Below, piece after piece: positions 36,914-46,545 of a DNA stretch of 64,000 bases. The notes beneath the pieces are model-generated. The model made no database searches and had not been told where the DNA came from. It worked only from the letters and a program-made list of their open reading frames with translations. Both the position numbers and the translations under genes were made by a program. The stretch spans positions 1 to 64,000 of the forward strand of contig CAZGJX010000003.1 in NCBI GenBank assembly GCA_964525635.1, read 5' to 3'. Position 1 is the stretch's first letter. Every line of letters starts with the position of its first letter. The stretch comes from an uncultured archaeon (lineage in GTDB: Archaea > Asgardarchaeota > Lokiarchaeia > Sigyniarchaeales > SOKP01).

Positions 36914-39103
36914 ATGTGTCATTATCAAATAGATGAAAATATTTCATACGGAAAGTATCTTGAAGCCCTAGAAAAATTAAAATTAATTGAGAAAAAAAGA
37001 ACACTAACTAGTGATGAATATTTATTAAAAATTTATGTAAACATTTTTATATTGCTTGATAACGGAGAATTTCATAGAGGTAAGGAACTTGCTGATAAAA
37101 TGATTAAAGAATCCAGAAAACAATGCAATATTTTAATGGAAATTGATGCATTAATAGGAAAAATTGAGCATAATTATAGTTTATCTATTTATAATGAATC
37201 ATTTGAATTAGTAGAGCAAGGAGAGAATCTTTTAAAAAAAATAAATGATAAAGAAATAAATCAAATAAAAAAACGTCAAGCATATTTATTATTTCTGAAA
37301 GGAAAGCTTTACCGTGATTCACATAATATAAAAAAAGCTTTAGAGCTATTTAAACAGAGTTATGAATTAAGAAAAGAAATTAATGATAGATTTGGAATGA
37401 TTTGGAGTTTATCAGAATTAGGAATATCAAGTACTACAATTGGAGATTTTAAAATAGCTAAGAAATATTTGAAAGAGGGTATAACTTTAACTAAAGAATT
37501 AGATGCAAGAATAGGTTTGATTTGGTGTTTAGTCCATATTGGTTGGGTAAGTTATCATTTAAGAGATTTAAATAGTGCTACATCATATGCAAAGGAATGT
37601 CTTTCAATCTGTCATTATAAAAAAAATAGTATTGCAATTTCACTTTGTTATGATCTTCTGGGTCATTGCTCCCTTGTAAAAGGAGATTTAAAAAATGCGT
37701 TACTCTTATTTAAGGATGGTCTTAATATTAGAAAAGAAAACAAATTTAATAATTTAATTCCATACTCTTATTGCTTAATAGGAGAAGTCTATTGTCAAAA
37801 GGGTGAATTTAAAAAAAGTATAGAATATTTTGATAAAATAATTGAAATTAAAGACTATTATTTAGGTGATATGTTTAAGCCTATGTATTTAAATGCATTA
37901 GGGAAGATCTATGGAGAATTAGGGGAATATAAGATTGCAAAAAAATATCTATTAGAAGCTTTAGATTTTTTAAAAAAAAAAAAGATATATCTCTTTCAAT
38001 TTATAAATTTTAATATATCCACAATAAAAATACTTCATAATTTAATTGTACTCTCAATAAATAACAAAGATTTTGAAAAAGTAAATAATTATTTAGATGA
38101 TTTATATCAAATCAAATTAAAGCATTCGGAGTTAAAACAAGTTGATCAAATATATCGATTAGATAAGGGTATTATTTTAAAGTCAGGAAATCGTTTAATG
38201 AACAAGATTAAAGCAGAAAAAATATTTAATGAAATTATTGAGGAAGAGAGAATTGATAATGAAATTACTATTGAAGTAATGAAAAATCAATGTGAAATCT
38301 ATCTATATGAATTAGAAATAAGTGGAGAAAAATATATACTACAGGAAATGGAGATGCTTTCTGATAAATTATTCATGATAGCCGAATCTGAGGAATTATT
38401 TGATACATTAGCCGAAGCATATTTTCTTAAAGCTAAAATAGCGTTATTAAATTTAGATATAAATAATGCACGCTTATTATTGACAAAAGCACAGAATATT
38501 GCAAATGAATATGAACTAACACGATTAGCAAGTAAAATATCTAATCAACACGATTCCCTTTTAATGAATTTAGATAAATGGGAGGAGAAAATTGAACAAA
38601 ATCTCACATTAAAGGAAAGATTAATAAATTCTAAAAATGACTTCCTGTTCTTTGAAAAAGATAGTTTAAATTCAATTGAAAAAGAAGATAAAAATGAAAT
38701 ACCGGTCTATTTTTTAATTATAAACAATATCAACGCAGAATGTATATATAATAAAGCATTTCAGAATATAAATATGGATGATGGTAGCCTTATAGCAGGA
38801 TATATTTCAGCCATTAATATTTTTGGAAAAGAAGCCTTTAATTCTTCAGGTTCGATTAACCGTATAAGACATGGTGAATATATAACAATTTTAGCTTTAA
38901 AAGAGGAATTTTTATTTGGATATATCTTTAAAGGTTATTCTTATTCTGCTATATCTAAATTGAATAAATTTATCAAAGAATTATCATACCTTACTTCTAA
39001 TTTTGAAAATATTACTTTAGAATTTGAAAGAAATCTAAAACTCCCTGAAGAACTCCATATAACTATGGAAAATTTAGTGGAAAACATTTTCTTGATGAGT
39101 TAA
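36914..39103 (+). CDS. TPR + longin-like protein, copy 8
   Basis: Full-length paralogue. Confidence 0.9.
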   Translation: MCHYQIDENISYGKYLEALEKLKLIEKKRTLTSDEYLLKIYVNIFILLDNGEFHRGKELADKMIKESRKQCNILMEIDALIGKIEHNYSLSIYNESFELVEQGENLLKKINDKEINQIKKRQAYLLFLKGKLYRDSHNIKKALELFKQSYELRKEINDRFGMIWSLSELGISSTTIGDFKIAKKYLKEGITLTKELDARIGLIWCLVHIGWVSYHLRDLNSATSYAKECLSICHYKKNSIAISLCYDLLGHCSLVKGDLKNALLLFKDGLNIRKENKFNNLIPYSYCLIGEVYCQKGEFKKSIEYFDKIIEIKDYYLGDMFKPMYLNALGKIYGELGEYKIAKKYLLEALDFLKKKKIYLFQFINFNISTIKILHNLIVLSINNKDFEKVNNYLDDLYQIKLKHSELKQVDQIYRLDKGIILKSGNRLMNKIKAEKIFNEIIEEERIDNEITIEVMKNQCEIYLYELEISGEKYILQEMEMLSDKLFMIAESEELFDTLAEAYFLKAKIALLNLDINNARLLLTKAQNIANEYELTRLASKISNQHDSLLMNLDKWEEKIEQNLTLKERLINSKNDFLFFEKDSLNSIEKEDKNEIPVYFLIINNINAECIYNKAFQNINMDDGSLIAGYISAINIFGKEAFNSSGSINRIRHGEYITILALKEEFLFGYIFKGYSYSAISKLNKFIKELSYLTSNFENITLEFERNLKLPEELHITMENLVENIFLMS

Positions 39104-39220
39104 TTCTTAGTTAAAATCTAGTTTTCTTGTATTTTAATAACTTACAAATTTATTTTTAATAAAATATAAATATGACTTATCCTTAAAATTCTCATAGTAC
39201 TTAAAATATGATATATTAAT

Positions 39221-39274
39221 ATGCATGCATATAAATTTAAACTCGGTTGGCAGTGGCCATGGCGTTTCGAATAA
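39221..39274 (+). CDS. candidate trp operon leader peptide MHAYKFKLGWQWPWRFE (17 aa)
   Basis: ATG 39221 to TAA 39272-39274; three TGG within five codons; directly upstream of the trp genes. Confidence 0.8.
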   Translation: MHAYKFKLGWQWPWRFE

Positions 39275-39338
39275 CGCTCTTGCATTGGTATAATCATATT
39301 TTAGTATGTGCTTTTTAATAGAATCATGCTATTTTTTT
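39257..39338 (+). promoter_or_regulatory. candidate attenuator region: hairpin over the leader stop codon followed by U tracts
   Basis: GCGTT(39262-66)/AACGC(39273-77) stem; T5 at 39312-39316 and T7 at 39332-39338. Confidence 0.5.
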
Positions 39339-39447
39339 ATTGATCATTTATATCTAATAAATGTGCTTTACAATATTGATTTCCTATATGTTAAAGTTAC
39401 ACATCTATGATGTTAAATTAAAATAATAAAATTAAAATGAAATAAAA

Positions 39448-39690
39448 ATGTTGGAAGAAAAATTAATATCTAAAAAAATGAATGAATTAAATGATTTAGA
39501 TTCAATTATAGATTCAAATGAGTTACATATCTCTCAAGAGAAGATCTATACTCAAGTAATGAAACTTATCAATAAAAAAAAGACAATCATTTTTGGTCCA
39601 GAAAAAAGTAAAACAGCAAAATTTATTGCTGAAAATTGTATGGATGTGTACAATATAATTAGAAAATATTATATGGAGAATTCTGATTAA
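39448..39690 (+). CDS. hypothetical 80-aa protein, first gene of the trp operon
   Basis: Stops 1 nt before the trpD ATG. Confidence 0.65.
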   Translation: MLEEKLISKKMNELNDLDSIIDSNELHISQEKIYTQVMKLINKKKTIIFGPEKSKTAKFIAENCMDVYNIIRKYYMENSD

Positions 39691-39691
39691 G

Positions 39692-40750
39692 ATGTCTGAA
39701 GAGATTAAGATATTAACAGGATTAAACAGTGTAATTAAGAATATAGATCTATCAACCAATGATGCAGAAGAAATAATGCGTGAGATTATGAGCGGAAGAG
39801 TCACTAACGCTCAATTAGGAGCATTTTTAACTGCATTAAACATGAAAGGTGAATCTATTGATGAAATAGTTGGATTTGCAAAAATTATGAGAGAATTTGC
39901 AAATCGTATCGAACCAAATGTTTCAGGTGAATTATTGGATACATGTGGAACAGGAGGAGATAAAATAAAAACATTTAATATTAGCACGATTTCTGCAATA
40001 GTTCTTGCTGGAGCTGGAGCTTATGTTGCAAAACATGGGAATAGAGCAGTTACAAGTAAATGTGGAAGTGCTGATTTATTAGAAGGACTTGGAGTAAATA
40101 TAGCTTTAGAACCAGGAAAAGTAAAGAATTGTATTGAACAAGCAGGAATTGGCTTTATGTTTGCTCCTCTGTTTCATCCTGCTATGAAATATGCAATGCC
40201 TACTAGAAGAGAATTAAAAATCCGAACTGTCTTTAATATTTTAGGTCCTTTAACAAATCCAGCTAATGCAAAATGTCATGTTTTAGGTGTATTTAAAAAA
40301 GAGATGGTTCCAATCATGGCGAAGGTTCTAAAAGGATTAGATGCAAAACATGTCTTTACTGTTCATAATTCATATGGAATTGACGAACTTGCTCCCACAG
40401 GAGTAAATTATATTACAGAATATATGGATGGAAACCTTGAAAGTTATGCAATTACCAATAAAGAATTTAATATTCCTGATTGTTCTATTAATGAATTGTT
40501 AGCCGGAAATCTTGAGGAAAATTTAAAAATAGCAATTGATATTCTCAAAAATCAATCTTCTGGGGCAAAATTTAATACGGTTTTAATGAATGCTGCTTTA
40601 GCATTAAAAAGTATAGATATTGCTCATGATTTTCAAGAAGGTGTGGCAATTGCTAAAGAAACGATTGAATCTGGAAAAGCCTTTGATAAATTAAAAAAAT
40701 TTATTGAAATTTCTGGTGGAGATATCCAAAAATTAATGAATCTTACATAA
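39692..40750 (+). CDS. trpD: anthranilate phosphoribosyltransferase
   Basis: DTCGTGGD, FNIST, KHGNRAVTSKCGSAD, RTVFNILGPLTNP. Confidence 0.98.
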   Translation: MSEEIKILTGLNSVIKNIDLSTNDAEEIMREIMSGRVTNAQLGAFLTALNMKGESIDEIVGFAKIMREFANRIEPNVSGELLDTCGTGGDKIKTFNISTISAIVLAGAGAYVAKHGNRAVTSKCGSADLLEGLGVNIALEPGKVKNCIEQAGIGFMFAPLFHPAMKYAMPTRRELKIRTVFNILGPLTNPANAKCHVLGVFKKEMVPIMAKVLKGLDAKHVFTVHNSYGIDELAPTGVNYITEYMDGNLESYAITNKEFNIPDCSINELLAGNLEENLKIAIDILKNQSSGAKFNTVLMNAALALKSIDIAHDFQEGVAIAKETIESGKAFDKLKKFIEISGGDIQKLMNLT

Positions 40751-40769
40751 ATTAAGAGTAAACTAAATA

Positions 40770-41573
40770 ATGGTTTCAGATAAAATAAGAGAAATAGTAA
40801 ACAAGAGATTAAAAACAATATCTAATGATATTGAATATGAAAAACATATGGAAAGTTCAATTCAAAATAAAAATATTTTAAATCTAAGTGAAACTATTAA
40901 AAATAATAAAGGAATTTCAATCATTTCTGAAATAAAACCAGCATCACCAACATTAGGAGAAATAAGAAGCAATATTAACGTTCCAGATATTGCTAAAATC
41001 ATGAAAGATTCAGGTGTTATTGGATTAAGTATTTTGACAGAACCAAATTATTTCAATGGTTCATATACTAATTTGAAATTAGCTGTTGAAACTACAGAAT
41101 TACCTTGCTTGATGAAAGATTTTGTTATTAATCCTATCCAATTTTCTATAGCTAGCAAACTTGGAGCAACGAATATTTTAATTATTAACTCAATTGAAAA
41201 TCTAAATTTAGAGGAGTATTATAATTTAGCAATGAATTATCATCTTGAACCACTTATCGAAATTCATGATATAGATGAAATTAAAGATATTCAACATTTA
41301 TTCGAAATTGGTTTTAATCCAAAATTAATTGGTGTTAATAATCGCAACCTGAATACCTTATTAATAGATCTTAATACATCTAAGAAAATTATACCAGAAT
41401 TAAAACAAGAATTTGGAAATAAAATTCAAATTGTAAGTGAAAGTGGTATAAATTCTCATAGTGATATTAAAGAATTGCAATCTTATGGTGCTAATGCATT
41501 TTTAATAGGATCTTCAATTATGAAATCAATTGATATTAGTAAAAAGATCCATGAATTAAGAGGTGTAGATTAA
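40770..41573 (+). CDS. trpC: indole-3-glycerol-phosphate synthase
   Basis: SEIKPASPTLG, SILTEP, KDF, GVNNRNL, SESGI. Confidence 0.97.
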   Translation: MVSDKIREIVNKRLKTISNDIEYEKHMESSIQNKNILNLSETIKNNKGISIISEIKPASPTLGEIRSNINVPDIAKIMKDSGVIGLSILTEPNYFNGSYTNLKLAVETTELPCLMKDFVINPIQFSIASKLGATNILIINSIENLNLEEYYNLAMNYHLEPLIEIHDIDEIKDIQHLFEIGFNPKLIGVNNRNLNTLLIDLNTSKKIIPELKQEFGNKIQIVSESGINSHSDIKELQSYGANAFLIGSSIMKSIDISKKIHELRGVD

Positions 41574-42226
41574 TGGAATATATTAAAATCTGTGGTATCA
41601 AAAATTTTGATGATGCCAAACTATGTATTGAAAATGGAGCAGACGCAATAGGATTTGTATATAATGTCCCTTCTTCTCCAAGAAATCTAGAAATAAATGA
41701 AATTAATTCACTTATTAATCAGATAAATAATAAGATTTCTACAGTCTTAGTAACTAAATCTAATAATTTGGAGGAAATTCAAAGATTAATAAAGGAGTAT
41801 AATATTACATATTTTCAAATACATTCAAATTTAGATATTAATGAGTTTAATCAACTTCCAACTGAAATAAAACAAAAACTTATTATAACTCTTAAAGTAA
41901 ATAATGAAAATAAAGATTCAATCACATCAATCATCAATAAATTCAATGACCAATTTCATGCCTTTTTATTAGATAATAGTGAAGGTCATGGAAATGAATT
42001 AGATATAAATCTAGTAAAAAAAATTATAACCAATTTAAAAGATACGAGAATTATTCTTGCGGGAGGAATAAATATTAAAAATATTGAAAATATTATTAAA
42101 ATTTTAAATCCCTATGGTATTGATCTTAGTAGCTCTTTAGAATCTGAAAAAGGAGTGAAAGACCCTAATAAAATTATAAATTTCTTAGAAAAAATAAATG
42201 GAATAAAAAATAACATTAAAAATTGA
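41573..42226 (+). CDS. trpF: phosphoribosylanthranilate isomerase
   Basis: IKICGI, GADAIGFV, SPR, ILAGG, DLSSSLES. Confidence 0.96.
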   Translation: MEYIKICGIKNFDDAKLCIENGADAIGFVYNVPSSPRNLEINEINSLINQINNKISTVLVTKSNNLEEIQRLIKEYNITYFQIHSNLDINEFNQLPTEIKQKLIITLKVNNENKDSITSIINKFNDQFHAFLLDNSEGHGNELDINLVKKIITNLKDTRIILAGGINIKNIENIIKILNPYGIDLSSSLESEKGVKDPNKIINFLEKINGIKNNIKN

Positions 42227-43447
42227 GTGAAAATGGACTATATTGGAAAATATCCTGATAAATTAGGAAAATTTGGTGATTTTGGGGGTATGTTTGCACC
42301 TGAGATCCTTATGCCTGCACTAAATGAATTGACTGAAGCATATAATAAATATATACATGATGATGAGTTCCAAAAAGAATTTTATGACATTCTTAAAGAT
42401 TATAGTGGAAGACCTACACCATTGTATTATGCATCTAAACTAAGTGAACAGATTGGGTGTAAAGTTTACTTAAAGAGAGAAGATCTCTCCCATGGAGGCG
42501 CTCACAAGATCAACAATGTTATAGGACAATCGCTGCTCGCAAAGAAAATTGGTAAGAAACGCTTAGTAGCTGAAACCGGTGCTGGGCAACATGGATTCGC
42601 AACGGCAATAGCGGGGGCTTATTTTGGAATGCCAACAAAAGTATTTATGGGAGAGGTAGATATAGTAAGACAATCTATGAATGTATATCGAATGCAACTC
42701 CTAGGTGCTGAAGTTATTCCTGTTAAATCAGGTTCTAGAACATTGAAAGATGCTATTAATGAAGGTTTAAGATATTGGATAGCAAATGTTCATGATACAC
42801 ATTATCTCATGGGGAGTGTAGTTGGACCACATCCATATCCTATGTTAGTAAGAGAATTTCAAAGAGTTATTGGTAAGGAAATAAAACAACAAATATTAGA
42901 AAAAGAAGGTAAGCTTCCTAATGCGATTATTGCGTGTATTGGAGGAGGTAGTAATGCTATTGGAGCTTTCTATGACTTTGTAAATGATGATGTTCAATTA
43001 ATTGGTGTAGAGGCGGGTGGAGAGGGAATGGAGAGTGGTAAACATTCAATAGCATTAGGTTTAGGACGTCGAGGTGTTTTACATGGTGCTATGCAACATC
43101 TTTTGCAGGATGAGTTTGGAAACATTCTTGAAACTCATTCTATCAGTGCAGGATTAGATTATCCAGGGGTCGGACCAGAACATTGCTATTTAAAAGAAAT
43201 TAATCGCTTAAGAGTTGGGGAAGCAACTGATCAGGAGACTTTAGAGGCATTTAAGAATTTATCTCGTGTTGAAGGTATCATTCCAGCCTTGGAAAGCAGC
43301 CATGCTCTTGGATATCTATACAAAATTAGAAATGAATTCGATAAATCAGATATAGTTATTATCAATCTTTCTGGATCGGGAAGTAAAGATTTATCAATTG
43401 TGGCAGATCATATAAAATTTAAAATACATCCTAAGAACATATTGTAA
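42227..43447 (+). CDS. trpB: tryptophan synthase beta chain (TrpB1 type)
   Basis: [45 protein letters not shown]. Confidence 0.98.
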
Positions 43448-43501
43448 TTTTCTTTAGAAAATTAAATTAATTATTTAAAGTATTAATAAATGATGGAAAA
43501 T

Positions 43502-43624
43502 ATGGGAATTAACAAGAATAAAATTGAAGAATGTAATGATGATACAGTTATTGTTAAATTATCTGGTTCAGGATAAAAAGATCTTGATATAATTAAAGAA
43601 TATATGGTGTTTAAAGTAAAATGA
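43502..43624 (+). pseudogene. relic 3' end of a second trpB copy
   Basis: Reads ...DDTVIVKLSGSG*KDLDIIKEY..., aligning with the trpB C-terminus [18 protein letters not shown]; ends in an ATGA overlap with trpA. Confidence 0.75.
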
Positions 43625-44457
43625 GTAATACAAATAGATTATTTAAGTTATTTAATGGTAGAGATGTCAATGACAAATATTTTATGCCCTTTTTTGTAGC
43701 AGGAGATCCGAGTATTGATGAGTTTAAGAATATCATCAAGAAAATTGAGCCATATGCAGATATCATTGAAATTGGGATACCATTTTCCGATCCTATTGCA
43801 GATGGTCCAACAATTCAAGAAGGAAATGTAAGAGCCTTTAAAGCAGGAATTAATACAAAAGTAGCTCTGGATGCAATTAAAGAACTAAGAAAATCAACTG
43901 ATAAACCTTTTGTTATTTTAACTTATTATAATATACTTATTCAAGGAGCTGAAACAATAGAAAAGTCAATTGATAAAACATTTAAACAATTAAAAGAAAG
44001 TGGAATAGATGGAATGGTTATCGCAGATCTACCAATTGAGGAAGCAAATTTAGTTTTAGAAGCATGTGAAAAGTATGATTTAGCATTAATATTTCTTGTT
44101 GCACCTTCTACCACAGAAGAAAGATTAAAAAAGATCTTGCTTAAAGCAAAAGGATTTATTTATCTAATATCAGTAATGGGTGTAACTGGAGCAAGAGAAA
44201 CGGTTGCTCAAATTACAAAGGAGAATATAGCAAGAATAAAGCAAAAAACTGATAAAAACCTTCCCGTTTTTGTAGGATTTGGTATATCAAAACCAGAACA
44301 TGCAAAAGCTATTATTGAAGCAGGAGCAGATGGAGTTATAATTGGTTCTGCGATTGTAGATCTTATTAAAAATAATCTAAATGATTTTCAGGAAATTGAA
44401 GGAAAATTAGTAGAATTTCATGAAAACATAAAAAATTCAATAAAGAGGTCGAATTAA
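43621..44457 (+). CDS. trpA: tryptophan synthase alpha chain
   Basis: AGDP, EIGIPFSDPIADGPTIQ, GVTGAR, VGFGIS, ADGVIIGSA. Confidence 0.98.
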   Translation: MSNTNRLFKLFNGRDVNDKYFMPFFVAGDPSIDEFKNIIKKIEPYADIIEIGIPFSDPIADGPTIQEGNVRAFKAGINTKVALDAIKELRKSTDKPFVILTYYNILIQGAETIEKSIDKTFKQLKESGIDGMVIADLPIEEANLVLEACEKYDLALIFLVAPSTTEERLKKILLKAKGFIYLISVMGVTGARETVAQITKENIARIKQKTDKNLPVFVGFGISKPEHAKAIIEAGADGVIIGSAIVDLIKNNLNDFQEIEGKLVEFHENIKNSIKRSN

Positions 44458-44458
44458 A

Positions 44459-45955
44459 TTGGATTTTGACATACATATAGAAAAAATTGGAGAATTAGAT
44501 AATATCTTTAATTTTTATAAATATCTCATCGAAAAATATGATTTTAAGAAGCATGTCCTATTAGAATCCTCATCAGGAAACTCAAACGAAACCTTATATA
44601 GTTTTATTGCTCTTGAACCTGATTTTATGTTTGAAATTAATGGGAAGAACTATAAAATTTTCGATATCACTTCAGAAAGAGGTGAAAATATCAAAAATTA
44701 TGTTGAATCTAAAGATCCCGCTAAGGAAATACCACGTAATCCCCTACCATTTAATGATAATGTCGATTATAATATGATTGCTTTAGATACCTTAAGTCAT
44801 CTTACCCCATATTCTAAATTACCTTTTACTGAACTATTTCCAAGAAATATATTTTTTGGAGGAGTAGTAGGGGTGATCTCTTATGATATAGTAGCACCAT
44901 ATGTTGGTTATCAATCTAATAGTGAATTTCCAGATATTCTCATGGGACTTTATACAAAAGTACTTGTATATTCGCACAAATCTAATGCTTTATTTATGAT
45001 AGATAATAGCCTTGATGATTATTCAAGGGACAAGGACATTAGATATCAATTAGAATTGTTTAAAAGAAATAATATTAAAAATAAAAAGAAAGATATTCCA
45101 TTAGATCTCGACGATATAGATGAAAGTATGTTTAGATCGAATACTTCTAAATCAGCTCACGAACAAATGGTGAACAAGACTAAAGAGCATATATATGCTG
45201 GCGATATAATTCAAGCGGTTATCTCTAGAAGACTATATACTGAAAGTAAAGTAAATCCTATTAATTTTTATGAAATACTTAGAGAGCTTAATCCCTCGAA
45301 TTATATGTATAATATCAATTTCAATTATATTAAAATAATTGGTAGTAGCCCCGAAGCTCTTATAACAAAAAATAAAGATGTTCTATCAACTATGCCAATA
45401 GCAGGAACGATAAGAAGAAGTAAGGATCCAGAAGAAGACTTGAATTTAGAGAGAGAATTACTAGGTAATATAAAGGAGAGGGCCGAGCACCTCATGCTAG
45501 TAGATTTGGCAAGGAATGACTTAGCTAAGGTCTCATATCCTGGAACTGTCGAAACATTTGATTTTATGACGATTCAGAAATACCAAAAAGTTCAACATAT
45601 CGTAAGCAAAGTTAGAAGTAAGACACCTCTTGATGGTTTTCAAGCATTAAAAAGTGTTTTTCCTGCAGGGACATTATCAGGAGCACCCAAATTAGAAGCT
45701 ATGAAAATAATCCAAGAACTTGAAACTGAAAATCGCTCATTTTATGGTGGAGCAATTGGCTATTTCAGTTTTAATGGGGATCTAGCAATGGCAATTGCCA
45801 TTAGAACATTATTTGGTCGGGGAAATAAATATTTTGCTCAAGCAGGGGGTGGAATTGTCGCAGACTCCCAACCAGAACAAGAATTCCAAGAAACTTATAA
45901 CAAATTATACAGTGTTTTGAAATCAATTAAGATAGCGGAGGCAAGAGAACAATGA
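44459..45955 (+). CDS. trpE: anthranilate synthase component I
   Basis: LLES, NPSNY, SSPE, PIAGT, EHLMLVDLARND, FPAGTLSGAPK. Confidence 0.96.
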   Translation: MDFDIHIEKIGELDNIFNFYKYLIEKYDFKKHVLLESSSGNSNETLYSFIALEPDFMFEINGKNYKIFDITSERGENIKNYVESKDPAKEIPRNPLPFNDNVDYNMIALDTLSHLTPYSKLPFTELFPRNIFFGGVVGVISYDIVAPYVGYQSNSEFPDILMGLYTKVLVYSHKSNALFMIDNSLDDYSRDKDIRYQLELFKRNNIKNKKKDIPLDLDDIDESMFRSNTSKSAHEQMVNKTKEHIYAGDIIQAVISRRLYTESKVNPINFYEILRELNPSNYMYNINFNYIKIIGSSPEALITKNKDVLSTMPIAGTIRRSKDPEEDLNLERELLGNIKERAEHLMLVDLARNDLAKVSYPGTVETFDFMTIQKYQKVQHIVSKVRSKTPLDGFQALKSVFPAGTLSGAPKLEAMKIIQELETENRSFYGGAIGYFSFNGDLAMAIAIRTLFGRGNKYFAQAGGGIVADSQPEQEFQETYNKLYSVLKSIKIAEAREQ

Positions 45956-46545
45956 ATATTTTATTTATAAATAATTACGATAGCTTTGTTTATAATTTAG
46001 TTAATTATTTCTGTCAGTTGGCTCCAGACGCTAGAATCATGATCGAAGACAATAATATCTCTATAGAAAAAGTTGAAGAATATTCTATTGATAAAATTAT
46101 AATATCACCTGGCCCCGGTCATCCCAAATACGATACAGGAACTGTCATTCCTATTATTAAACACTATCATAAAGAAATTCCGATCTTAGGGATTTGTCTT
46201 GGACATCAAGCAATTGTTGAAGCTTTTGGTGATAAGCCCGATTTGGAATATATTGGACGAGCTAAAGTAGGACCTATGCATGGAAAACAATCAAAGATAT
46301 TTCATGATCAAGAAAAAATCTATAAGGATATACCTAATCCAATCCAAGTTATTCGCTATCATTCTCTTGCAGCTAAAGGGGACATTCTTCCTCAAGACCT
46401 TAAAATCACAGCTACTGCAGATGATGGAACAATTATGGGGGTTCGACATAAACAATTTCCAGTTGAAGGGGTTCAGTTTCATCCCGAATCAATACAAATG
46501 AAGCCCCATGGAATGCAAATTTTAAAAAATTTCTTAGATATATGA
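45952..46545 (+). CDS. trpG: anthranilate synthase component II (glutamine amidotransferase)
   Basis: NYDSFVYNL, SPGPG, GICLGHQ, RYHSL, QFHPES. Confidence 0.97.
   Translation: MNILFINNYDSFVYNLVNYFCQLAPDARIMIEDNNISIEKVEEYSIDKIIISPGPGHPKYDTGTVIPIIKHYHKEIPILGICLGHQAIVEAFGDKPDLEYIGRAKVGPMHGKQSKIFHDQEKIYKDIPNPIQVIRYHSLAAKGDILPQDLKITATADDGTIMGVRHKQFPVEGVQFHPESIQMKPHGMQILKNFLDI

Follow-up and report, generated by a model that had tools for sequence, protein, structure and literature searches.

Leader-peptide attenuation is the textbook form of gene regulation by coupled transcription and translation and is regarded as a bacterial invention. The pyrBI leader of Escherichia coli senses UTP via polymerase pausing and not an amino acid via codon starvation, and its leader ORF extends through the terminator. 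The tnaC leader of the same species senses free tryptophan through the nascent peptide and switches on a catabolic operon. TRAP attenuation in Bacillus depends on a protein (TrpBP, PF02081) and about 11 (G/U)AG repeats. In Archaea, the trp genes are controlled by DNA-binding proteins acting at promoters, namely TrpY in M. thermautotrophicus and Tar (TK0271) in T. kodakarensis (PMC6737238). A full-text literature search found no report of leader-peptide attenuation in Archaea, a result that is provisional because most subscription journals were outside its coverage.

The trp locus analyzed here is located in a stretch of 64,000 nucleotides, referred to as the window (positions 1 to 64,000 of the forward strand of contig CAZGJX010000003.1, assembly GCA_964525635.1), from an uncultured member of the Lokiarchaeia. 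The genome, of 4.45 Mb, is archaeal, as it encodes three TBP genes. Downstream of a gene for a TPR protein, which ends at 39103, a 344-nt spacer contains an unannotated ORF of 17 codons on the plus strand (39221-39274), whose peptide, MHAYKFKLGWQWPWRFE, was read directly from the sequence. Its codons are ATG CAT GCA TAT AAA TTT AAA CTC GGT TGG CAG TGG CCA TGG CGT TTC GAA TAA, with the ATG at 39221 and the stop codon at 39272-39274. The three tryptophan codons at 39248, 39254, and 39260 encode W10, W12, and W14 (UGG CAG UGG CCA UGG, 39248-39262, plus strand) and are taken to be the regulatory codons. The G+C content is 52% in the island 39245-39290, 21.5% in the enclosing spacer, and 26.8% in the genome. 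The leader stop codon is separated by 173 nt from the next ORF, an 80-aa gene of unknown family without a Pfam match (39448-39690, plus strand), which is the first cistron past the leader and stops 1 nt before the ATG of trpD. The operon trpD-trpC-trpF-trpB-trpA-trpE-trpG follows on the same strand (39692-46545) and was assigned by the Pfam domains Glycos_transf_3, IGPS, PRAI, PALP, Trp_syntA, Chorismate_bind plus Anth_synt_I_N, and GATase, respectively. The preliminary description had reported a 17-codon ORF with three TGG in five codons, a GC-rich island in AT-rich intergenic DNA, and a gap of about 175 nt to the first operon gene, all of which agree with these measurements.

Short ORFs of such Trp density are rare. 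Of the 9,988 short ORFs in the whole genome that start with ATG and lie outside long ORFs, only three contain at least three Trp codons within five codons, and the random chance of one on the coding strand within this spacer is about 5e-4. A TATA-box-like element, TAAAATATAAATAT, is present about 55 nt upstream of the leader ATG (39160-39173, plus strand), and we infer that it serves as leader promoter. The string ATATAAATA is kept at the same position in 12 aligned relatives (alignment A1, columns 10-22), and a second type of leader described below (class B) has TATAAATA at about -55. A scan for bacterial promoters and terminators flagged nothing at the leader, although sigma-70 patterns are inapplicable to an archaeon. 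No tRNA gene was found in the window, and among the genes adjoining the trp operon none encodes a regulator of the TrpY or Tar kind, the upstream neighbor being the TPR protein gene.

Like enterobacterial trpL (RF00513), the element consists of a short ORF (14 codons in trpL, 17 here) with Trp codons near its end that precedes genes for Trp biosynthesis. The two differ in that the Trp codons alternate here (W-x-W-x-W) and are tandem in trpL, and in the host, which is archaeal here and has a polymerase that terminates at oligo-U, either alone or together with aCPSF1/FttA. Moreover, there was no Rfam match: cmscan of 38500-40200 at E ≤ 10 gave only two sub-threshold snoRNA matches, and neither a Trp_leader nor a T-box. 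The Asgard Trp leader is functionally closest to trpL, but it is not a member of the RF00513 RNA family. With tnaC it shares a short Trp-related leader ORF and a conserved C-terminal peptide, the difference being that here a biosynthetic operon would be switched on by Trp shortage. With TrpY and Tar it shares the pathway, the archaeal host, and the inferred response to tryptophan, but the element itself is an RNA leader that we infer to be translated.

To assess conservation, trpD was located in relatives and the upstream DNA was examined for short ORFs. An ORF with the ending W-x-W-x-W-(R/H)-x-stop was found upstream of trpD at 22 of 35 loci of the class by a strict rule and at 24 of 35 by a looser one, whereas the same rules matched only 1 and 3, respectively, of 78 unrelated loci. 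The latter were distant bacterial and archaeal trpD loci obtained from the related-locus search of genome contigs. In trpD-headed clusters, a short ORF with alternating terminal Trp codons is present at nearly every locus. Examples of the C-termini, each followed directly by the stop codon, are GWQMPWRY, WSWQWPWRWQ, WRWQWPWRA, RWHWSWRA, WFWAWRWHA, WFWVWCWHA, AWSWRR, WTIWAWRL, and LEWPWCWRN. Most of the loci of the class that do not qualify carry weaker versions; the leader of L004 retains two Trp codons (TWFCICCWHA before the stop). Altogether, about 50 leaders of the class share the C-terminus W-x-W-x-W-(R/H). The leader occurs upstream of trpD in families f1-f4 and f7, and Trp codons, reading frame, and stop position are conserved in at least four families. 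The preliminary description had named missing conservation of the Trp codons in relatives as a refutation, which these data do not provide.

The conservation is specific to one reading frame. An in-frame ATG is present in the UGG frame of 27 of 28 leaders and in the other two frames of 2 and 3 of 28, respectively. The distance from the last Trp codon to the stop codon is 1-4 codons in the UGG frame and has medians of about 9-15 codons in the others. The N-terminal residues, in turn, vary freely among relatives. No leader was seen in a family of the class that has the gene order trpE-trpG-trpD, and a phylum-wide pattern search was too noisy to reveal a leader outside the class. Two unusual frames were noticed. 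At L045 (G045:C5), an open frame of 69 codons ending in FFWSWSWHY and a stop codon lies 53 nt upstream of trpD and has no in-frame ATG, GTG, or TTG, which suggests that the start codon is non-canonical or that the leader is unusually long. In another Asgard family (L250-L252, one genus), a conserved short frame ending in CCFRRRRIWLWVWFP and a stop codon has no ATG and is followed by an ORF of 77-95 aa; three loci were examined among four pattern matches.

The association extends to tryptophan genes other than trpD. The gene trpD itself was found in only 38 of 151 genomes of the class, and a search for the leader 3'-end pattern over the same 151 genomes revealed many additional copies. Of 20 copies examined, 19 have an in-frame ATG and form short ORFs 15-26 codons in length. 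Ten downstream ORFs were scanned; they start 139-171 nt 3' of the leader and represent trpE (Chorismate_bind plus Anth_synt_I_N), trpA (Trp_syntA), or a TrpB2-like gene for a 467-aa pyridoxal-phosphate enzyme. Some of the additional copies occur in a genus in which trpD was found in 0 of 40 genomes. A role of the leader unrelated to tryptophan is very unlikely, since the same leader precedes trpE, trpA, and the TrpB2-like gene, including in the genus without trpD. The preliminary description had proposed to look for Trp-rich ORFs upstream of trp operons in other Asgard genomes, and such leaders thus exist also where the first gene is not trpD.

In several genomes that lack trpD, a Trp leader still precedes the 467-aa TrpB2-like gene, suggesting that indole salvage is placed under the same control. 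The window genome's own TrpB2-like gene (on C209) has no Trp leader. In some relatives, trpA forms a unit by itself, preceded by a dedicated Trp leader, whereas the trpB-trpA spacer of the window (43448-43620, 173 nt) does not contain one. The 80-aa protein is conserved in seven relatives with the motif LIN..GPEKSKTA(K/R)FIAEN.D. and contains no Trp residue. It has no Pfam family and no clear relative in the protein atlas. As its gene is present in only some of the leader-carrying lineages, we do not count it as an integral component of the sensor.

The genome was scanned for short ORFs with C-terminal runs of a single residue, which uncovered three further leaders. A Leu-rich one, MKMLQNIKDNYNMSNLGQVLSLGLLLNLLLLLL (ending in LSLGLLLNLLLLLL and a stop codon), is located on the plus strand 25.5 kb past the window end (L054:1019-1120, corresponding to G000:C3:89518-89619). 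It lies 98 nt upstream of leuA and is kept in about 17 relatives, always 82-102 nt before leuA. A hairpin of 55-60 nt begins 3-6 nt past its stop codon and has z-scores of -3.7 to -5.4 at 12 of 14 loci, with no clear U tract. Because the Leu leaders were misaligned by MAFFT, RNAalifold yielded no consensus for them; the hairpin is seen by folding of single sequences. An Ile-rich leader, MKKTIIPIVIIIIDGII, on the minus strand (L086:1951-2004, corresponding to G000:C20:46950-47003) precedes by 114 nt a second LeuA-like gene, which probably encodes citramalate synthase (cimA-like). About 12 relatives share it in the form ...IIP...IIIIGII before the stop, which lies within a small hairpin followed by a long A/U-rich one. 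The third, an Ala/Val-rich leader ending in NYLAVALAAANVVVL (with LAVALAAANVVVL directly before the stop codon), is located on the minus strand (L084:1433-1519, corresponding to G000:C77:3932-4018), 146 nt before one of two genes for class-IV (ilvE-like) aminotransferases. It is kept at the eight closest orthologues, is absent at the other paralogue, and has a pyrimidine/U tract 25-35 nt past the stop codon. Analogous leaders at other amino acid operons, as anticipated in the preliminary description, are therefore present at leuA, a cimA-like gene, and an ilvE-like gene.

Other residue-rich ORFs were rejected as cognate leaders. A His-rich short ORF, MRKIILKTNQLAHHHHQHH (L051:971-1030, plus strand, G000:C136), is separated by 701 nt from the next long ORF, which encodes 507 aa and has no Pfam family, and no link to his genes was seen. 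A Met-rich ORF (C144) and a Trp-rich ORF next to a transposase gene (C49) are not adjacent to cognate genes.

RNA folding of the Trp leaders revealed two conserved elements around the ORF. The closing helix P0 was identified in an RNAalifold consensus, in which columns 51-62 pair with columns 147-158, with many one-sided changes and tolerance of G.U pairs. On the plus strand of the window, its 5' arm (39198-39226) extends from AAAAUAUGAU in the 5' UTR through the start codon (AUGCAU), and its 3' arm (39280-39306; UUGCAUUGGUAUAAUCAUAUUUUAGUA), which is supported also by the window fold, ends with a U run. In alignment A1, the conserved block UAAAUCAUAUUUUA is located at this 3' arm. In leaders of the WQWPWR type (class A), to which the window belongs, P0 is formed by the 5' UTR segment AAAAUAUGAUUUA and by UAAAUCAUAUUUU directly past the hairpin that follows. 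The pairing holds in 88% of cells compared to 36-52% with the partner slid, and in the window it reaches over the start codon (AUGCA:UGCAU). The entire leader from 39198 to 39306 folds with -27.2 kcal/mol and a z-score of -2.71.

The second element is hairpin P1 (39251-39287, plus strand), which was derived from minimum free energy folds and has an inner stem GGCGUU/AACGCU around the stop codon and an outer stem CAGUG/CAUUG. The outer stem pairs 39251-39255, within the W-Q-W codons, with 39283-39287; alternatively, AUGCA of the start codon pairs with UGCAU. The preliminary description had proposed a GCGTT/AACGC stem, which indeed encloses the stop codon (39262-39266/39273-39277), and an extension by CCATG/CATTGG, in place of which we find one of the two outer pairings just named. 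P1 alone has -13.3 kcal/mol and a z-score of -0.11 in the window and is no more stable than dinucleotide shuffles, as is the case in most AT-rich relatives. What makes it significant is where it lies and that it is conserved, rather than its energy. Thus, the stop codon lies inside a hairpin loop of at most 12 nt in 84% of 49 leaders compared to 34% of dinucleotide shuffles.

In class-B leaders (WFWAWRWHA type), the 5' UTR pairs with the region of the first Trp codon (AAAUCAAGU with ACUUGGUUU) and shows two-sided changes. An 11-bp hairpin, CGUUGGCACG/CGUGCGCAAUG, whose 5' arm includes the last Trp codon and whose loop includes the UAG, is followed by a U-rich stretch. The leader of L049 represents a minimal form, in which the Trp codons are the 5' arm of a long hairpin (z-score -2.9) followed by UUUUUAUUUUUCUUUU (U5AU5), with only 77 nt between leader stop codon and trpD. 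The earlier statement that there is no strong bacterial-type terminator is thus apt for the window locus but does not hold for L049, where a textbook hairpin plus U tract is built from the Trp codons.

We found no counterpart of the classical 2:3 antiterminator. When the ribosome footprint was masked and pair probabilities were averaged, no new conserved helix and no 2:3-type alternative pairing appeared. Pairing of CAUUGG with CCAAU of a downstream hairpin, P3, was rejected as a candidate because it shows no covariation (L008, L031, and L001 vary in the wrong way). The structural likeness to trpL is that the regulatory codons lie in an RNA segment pairing with a stretch past the stop codon, that the leader start site is paired once the transcript is complete, and that U-rich RNA comes next. 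It differs from trpL by the stop codon in the hairpin loop, the long helix closing the 5' UTR onto the 3' side, and the additional hairpin P3, and neither a 2:3 antiterminator nor a 3:4 terminator pair was found here.

Two U tracts follow the fold (39312-39338, plus strand), a T5 at 39312-39316 and a T7 at 39332-39338, at the positions given in the preliminary description. Their function as oligo-U termination sites is inferred, and no strong hairpin is adjacent to them in the window. Among 29 leaders, a run of at least five T within 90 nt past the stop codon is present in 14 and a run of at least five A in six; the composition of these 90 nt is 42% T versus 28% A. Further downstream, hairpin P3 (39362-39403, plus strand; UGUGCUUUA...UAAAG..CACA, with the apex AUUGA..CUAUA) was recognized by covariation. 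One of its pairs occurs over 19 loci as GC (7), AU (4), UA (3), UG (2), and GU (1), and this variety of pairs identifies P3 as a helix of RNA rather than an operator in DNA. It has no energetic signature in the window (z-score -0.29). In class-A leaders it is located about 90 nt 3' of the stop codon and travels with the leader regardless of the next gene. It ends 45-60 nt before the next start codon, which it leaves uncovered, and is not followed by a U tract; its role is unknown. The motif is unique in the genome, and P3 was therefore rejected as a regulon motif.

The explanation that we consider likely, with a clear margin of doubt, is ribosome-mediated attenuation, in which the short ORF would be translated as a leader peptide, sensing charged tRNA-Trp and acting in cis on the trp operon. 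Of the marks of this class of regulators, three are present, namely a conserved ORF of cognate codons, the association with the cognate pathway together with parallel leaders, and a structure that a ribosome would prevent; for a conditional terminator between leader and genes, which is canonical in L049, the evidence is mixed. According to the proposed mechanism, transcription would start between the TATA-like box (39160-39173) and the leader ATG, about 25 nt upstream of the latter, and a ribosome would bind the nascent leader. With plentiful tryptophan, it would translate W10, W12, and W14, stop at the UAA at 39272, and depart. P1 could then form over the stop codon and P0 could pair the 5' UTR and start codon with 39280-39306, which would shut the leader start site and bring a stable fold immediately 5' of the U-rich RNA (UAUUUUAG, followed by T5 and T7). 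The archaeal polymerase would terminate there, alone or with aCPSF1/FttA. With scarce tryptophan, the ribosome would stall at the UGG codons in the 5' arm of P1 and keep the fold open, and the polymerase would pass the U tracts and transcribe the 80-aa gene and trpDCFBAEG. The ribosome itself would act as antiterminator and no separate antiterminator hairpin would be required; we favor such direct occlusion because footprint masking shows no alternative helix. A variant that fits equally well is that the stalled ribosome denies FttA access to the RNA.

This logic has precedents in bacteria. The mechanism proposed here resembles that of pyrBI in that no antiterminator RNA is involved, the footprint of the ribosome on the 5' arm blocking the terminator fold. 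In tnaC and Rho-dependent attenuation, a ribosome held near the end of the leader ORF blocks a termination factor, which is Rho in E. coli and would be aCPSF1/FttA here, a parallel that is untested.

Several observations favor the attenuator. P1 includes the Trp codons in its 5' arm and is a fold that a ribosome at this position would prevent. The leader is conserved before trpD, passes the frame test, and recurs at trpE, trpA, and the TrpB2-like gene. Among the folds, support comes from the excess of stop codons in hairpin loops, the stability of the leader closed by P0 with its G.U changes in relatives, the two-sided changes in class B, the L049 hairpin with U5AU5, and the U-rich stretch downstream. 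Cognate Leu, Ile, and Ala/Val leaders point in the same direction, as does the stable hairpin of the Leu leader. The genome, finally, is archaeal and encodes a 647-aa beta-CASP protein of the size of aCPSF1/FttA, and archaeal RNA polymerase terminates at oligo-T, which a hairpin can enhance (PMC13675443). Several points speak against it: P1 is not more stable than expected, T5 or longer runs are found in only about half of the leaders, the Leu hairpin lacks a clear U tract, there is no conserved 2:3-type pairing, and the family with the order trpE-trpG-trpD has no leader. A stalled ribosome might also fail to prevent formation of P0, and P3, a true RNA helix just upstream of the genes, has no role in the model. 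Nevertheless, the role as a Trp sensor is well supported, and the translating ribosome very probably gauges tryptophan supply at the leader. The output step, be it termination, translation, or stability, is inferred. The preliminary description's reading as ribosome-mediated attenuation is hence supported by conservation, linkage to Trp genes, and cognate leaders, while transcription of the operon from the leader promoter and the termination step remain unproven.

The uncertainty about the output step leaves room for an unlikely but serious alternative, in which the same sensing of tryptophan controls translation of the downstream cistron or stability or processing of the mRNA, by refolding of P0, P1, and P3 or by exposure to nucleases. 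It would account for the inconsistent U tracts (14 of 29 leaders), for the Leu-leader hairpin without one, and for P3 as a conserved RNA helix 45-60 nt before a start codon with no U tract behind it. Moreover, P0 sequesters the leader's own start codon, i.e., pairing at the level of translation is already in play. On the other hand, P3 and the hairpins leave the start codon and the Shine-Dalgarno-like region of the next gene uncovered, coupling would have to bridge rather long spacers (130-175 nt), and the leaders of L049 and class B resemble terminators composed of a hairpin plus U-rich RNA.

We regard as improbable a model in which a promoter and an operator specific to the operon lie within the conserved block 39340-39420, the leader being a separate small unit without control in cis. 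The DNA between leader and genes is AT-rich with TATA-like strings, a block around ACACAT is conserved, the T tracts past the leader could merely end a short transcript, and the known regulators of archaeal trp genes, TrpY and Tar, bind DNA (PMC6737238). The block is, however, a helix of RNA, in which one position shows several kinds of Watson-Crick pair and G.U pairs also occur, and at L037 it has no TATA-like string; for these reasons a promoter or palindromic operator was rejected as the main reading of P3. Furthermore, the block accompanies the leader whatever gene is next, the distance from leader stop codon to trpD is very short in L049, and a free-standing Trp-rich ORF before four different Trp genes lacks another rationale. 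In DNA as AT-rich as that between leader and genes, an internal promoter cannot be excluded. There are no transcript or ribosome data, and co-transcription of leader and operon is an inference.

That the UGG triplets are sites for a TRAP-like RNA-binding protein, or that a functional Trp-rich micropeptide is the product of the ORF, with the open frame incidental or serving another purpose, is highly improbable: the triplets are 3 nt apart, similar to TRAP sites (2-3 nt), and the C-terminal motif W-x-W-P-W-R is well conserved, but the genome has no TRAP gene (PF02081; the B. subtilis control was detected), there are merely two to six triplets per leader (three UGG in the window), ATG and stop codon are conserved solely in the UGG frame, N-terminal residues are not conserved, the arginine codon is accounted for by the P1 stem, and the Leu, Ile, and Ala/Val leaders are each located upstream of a cognate gene.

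With the attenuator as preferred reading, the wider proposition is that ribosome-mediated transcription attenuation operates in Lokiarchaeia-type Asgard archaea at the Trp, Leu, Ile, and Ala/Val pathways in a simplified form, in which a stalled ribosome blocks a terminator-like fold before oligo-U/FttA sites; at present, we see even chances for and against it. For genome annotation, the leader ORFs, which are unannotated, mark amino acid regulons in uncultured genomes. With a length of about 110-230 nt and dozens of natural variants (class A, class B, and the minimal L049 form), the leader element is a compact natural system for studying termination and coupling in Archaea. If cognate leaders form a conserved family in Asgard archaea, this would show that amino acid supply is read through the ribosome, that polymerase and ribosome are coupled closely enough for this purpose, and that archaeal termination at oligo-U, possibly with aCPSF1/FttA, can be made conditional by RNA folding. 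If true, close coupling of transcription and translation would serve gene control in the prokaryotic lineage nearest to eukaryotes.
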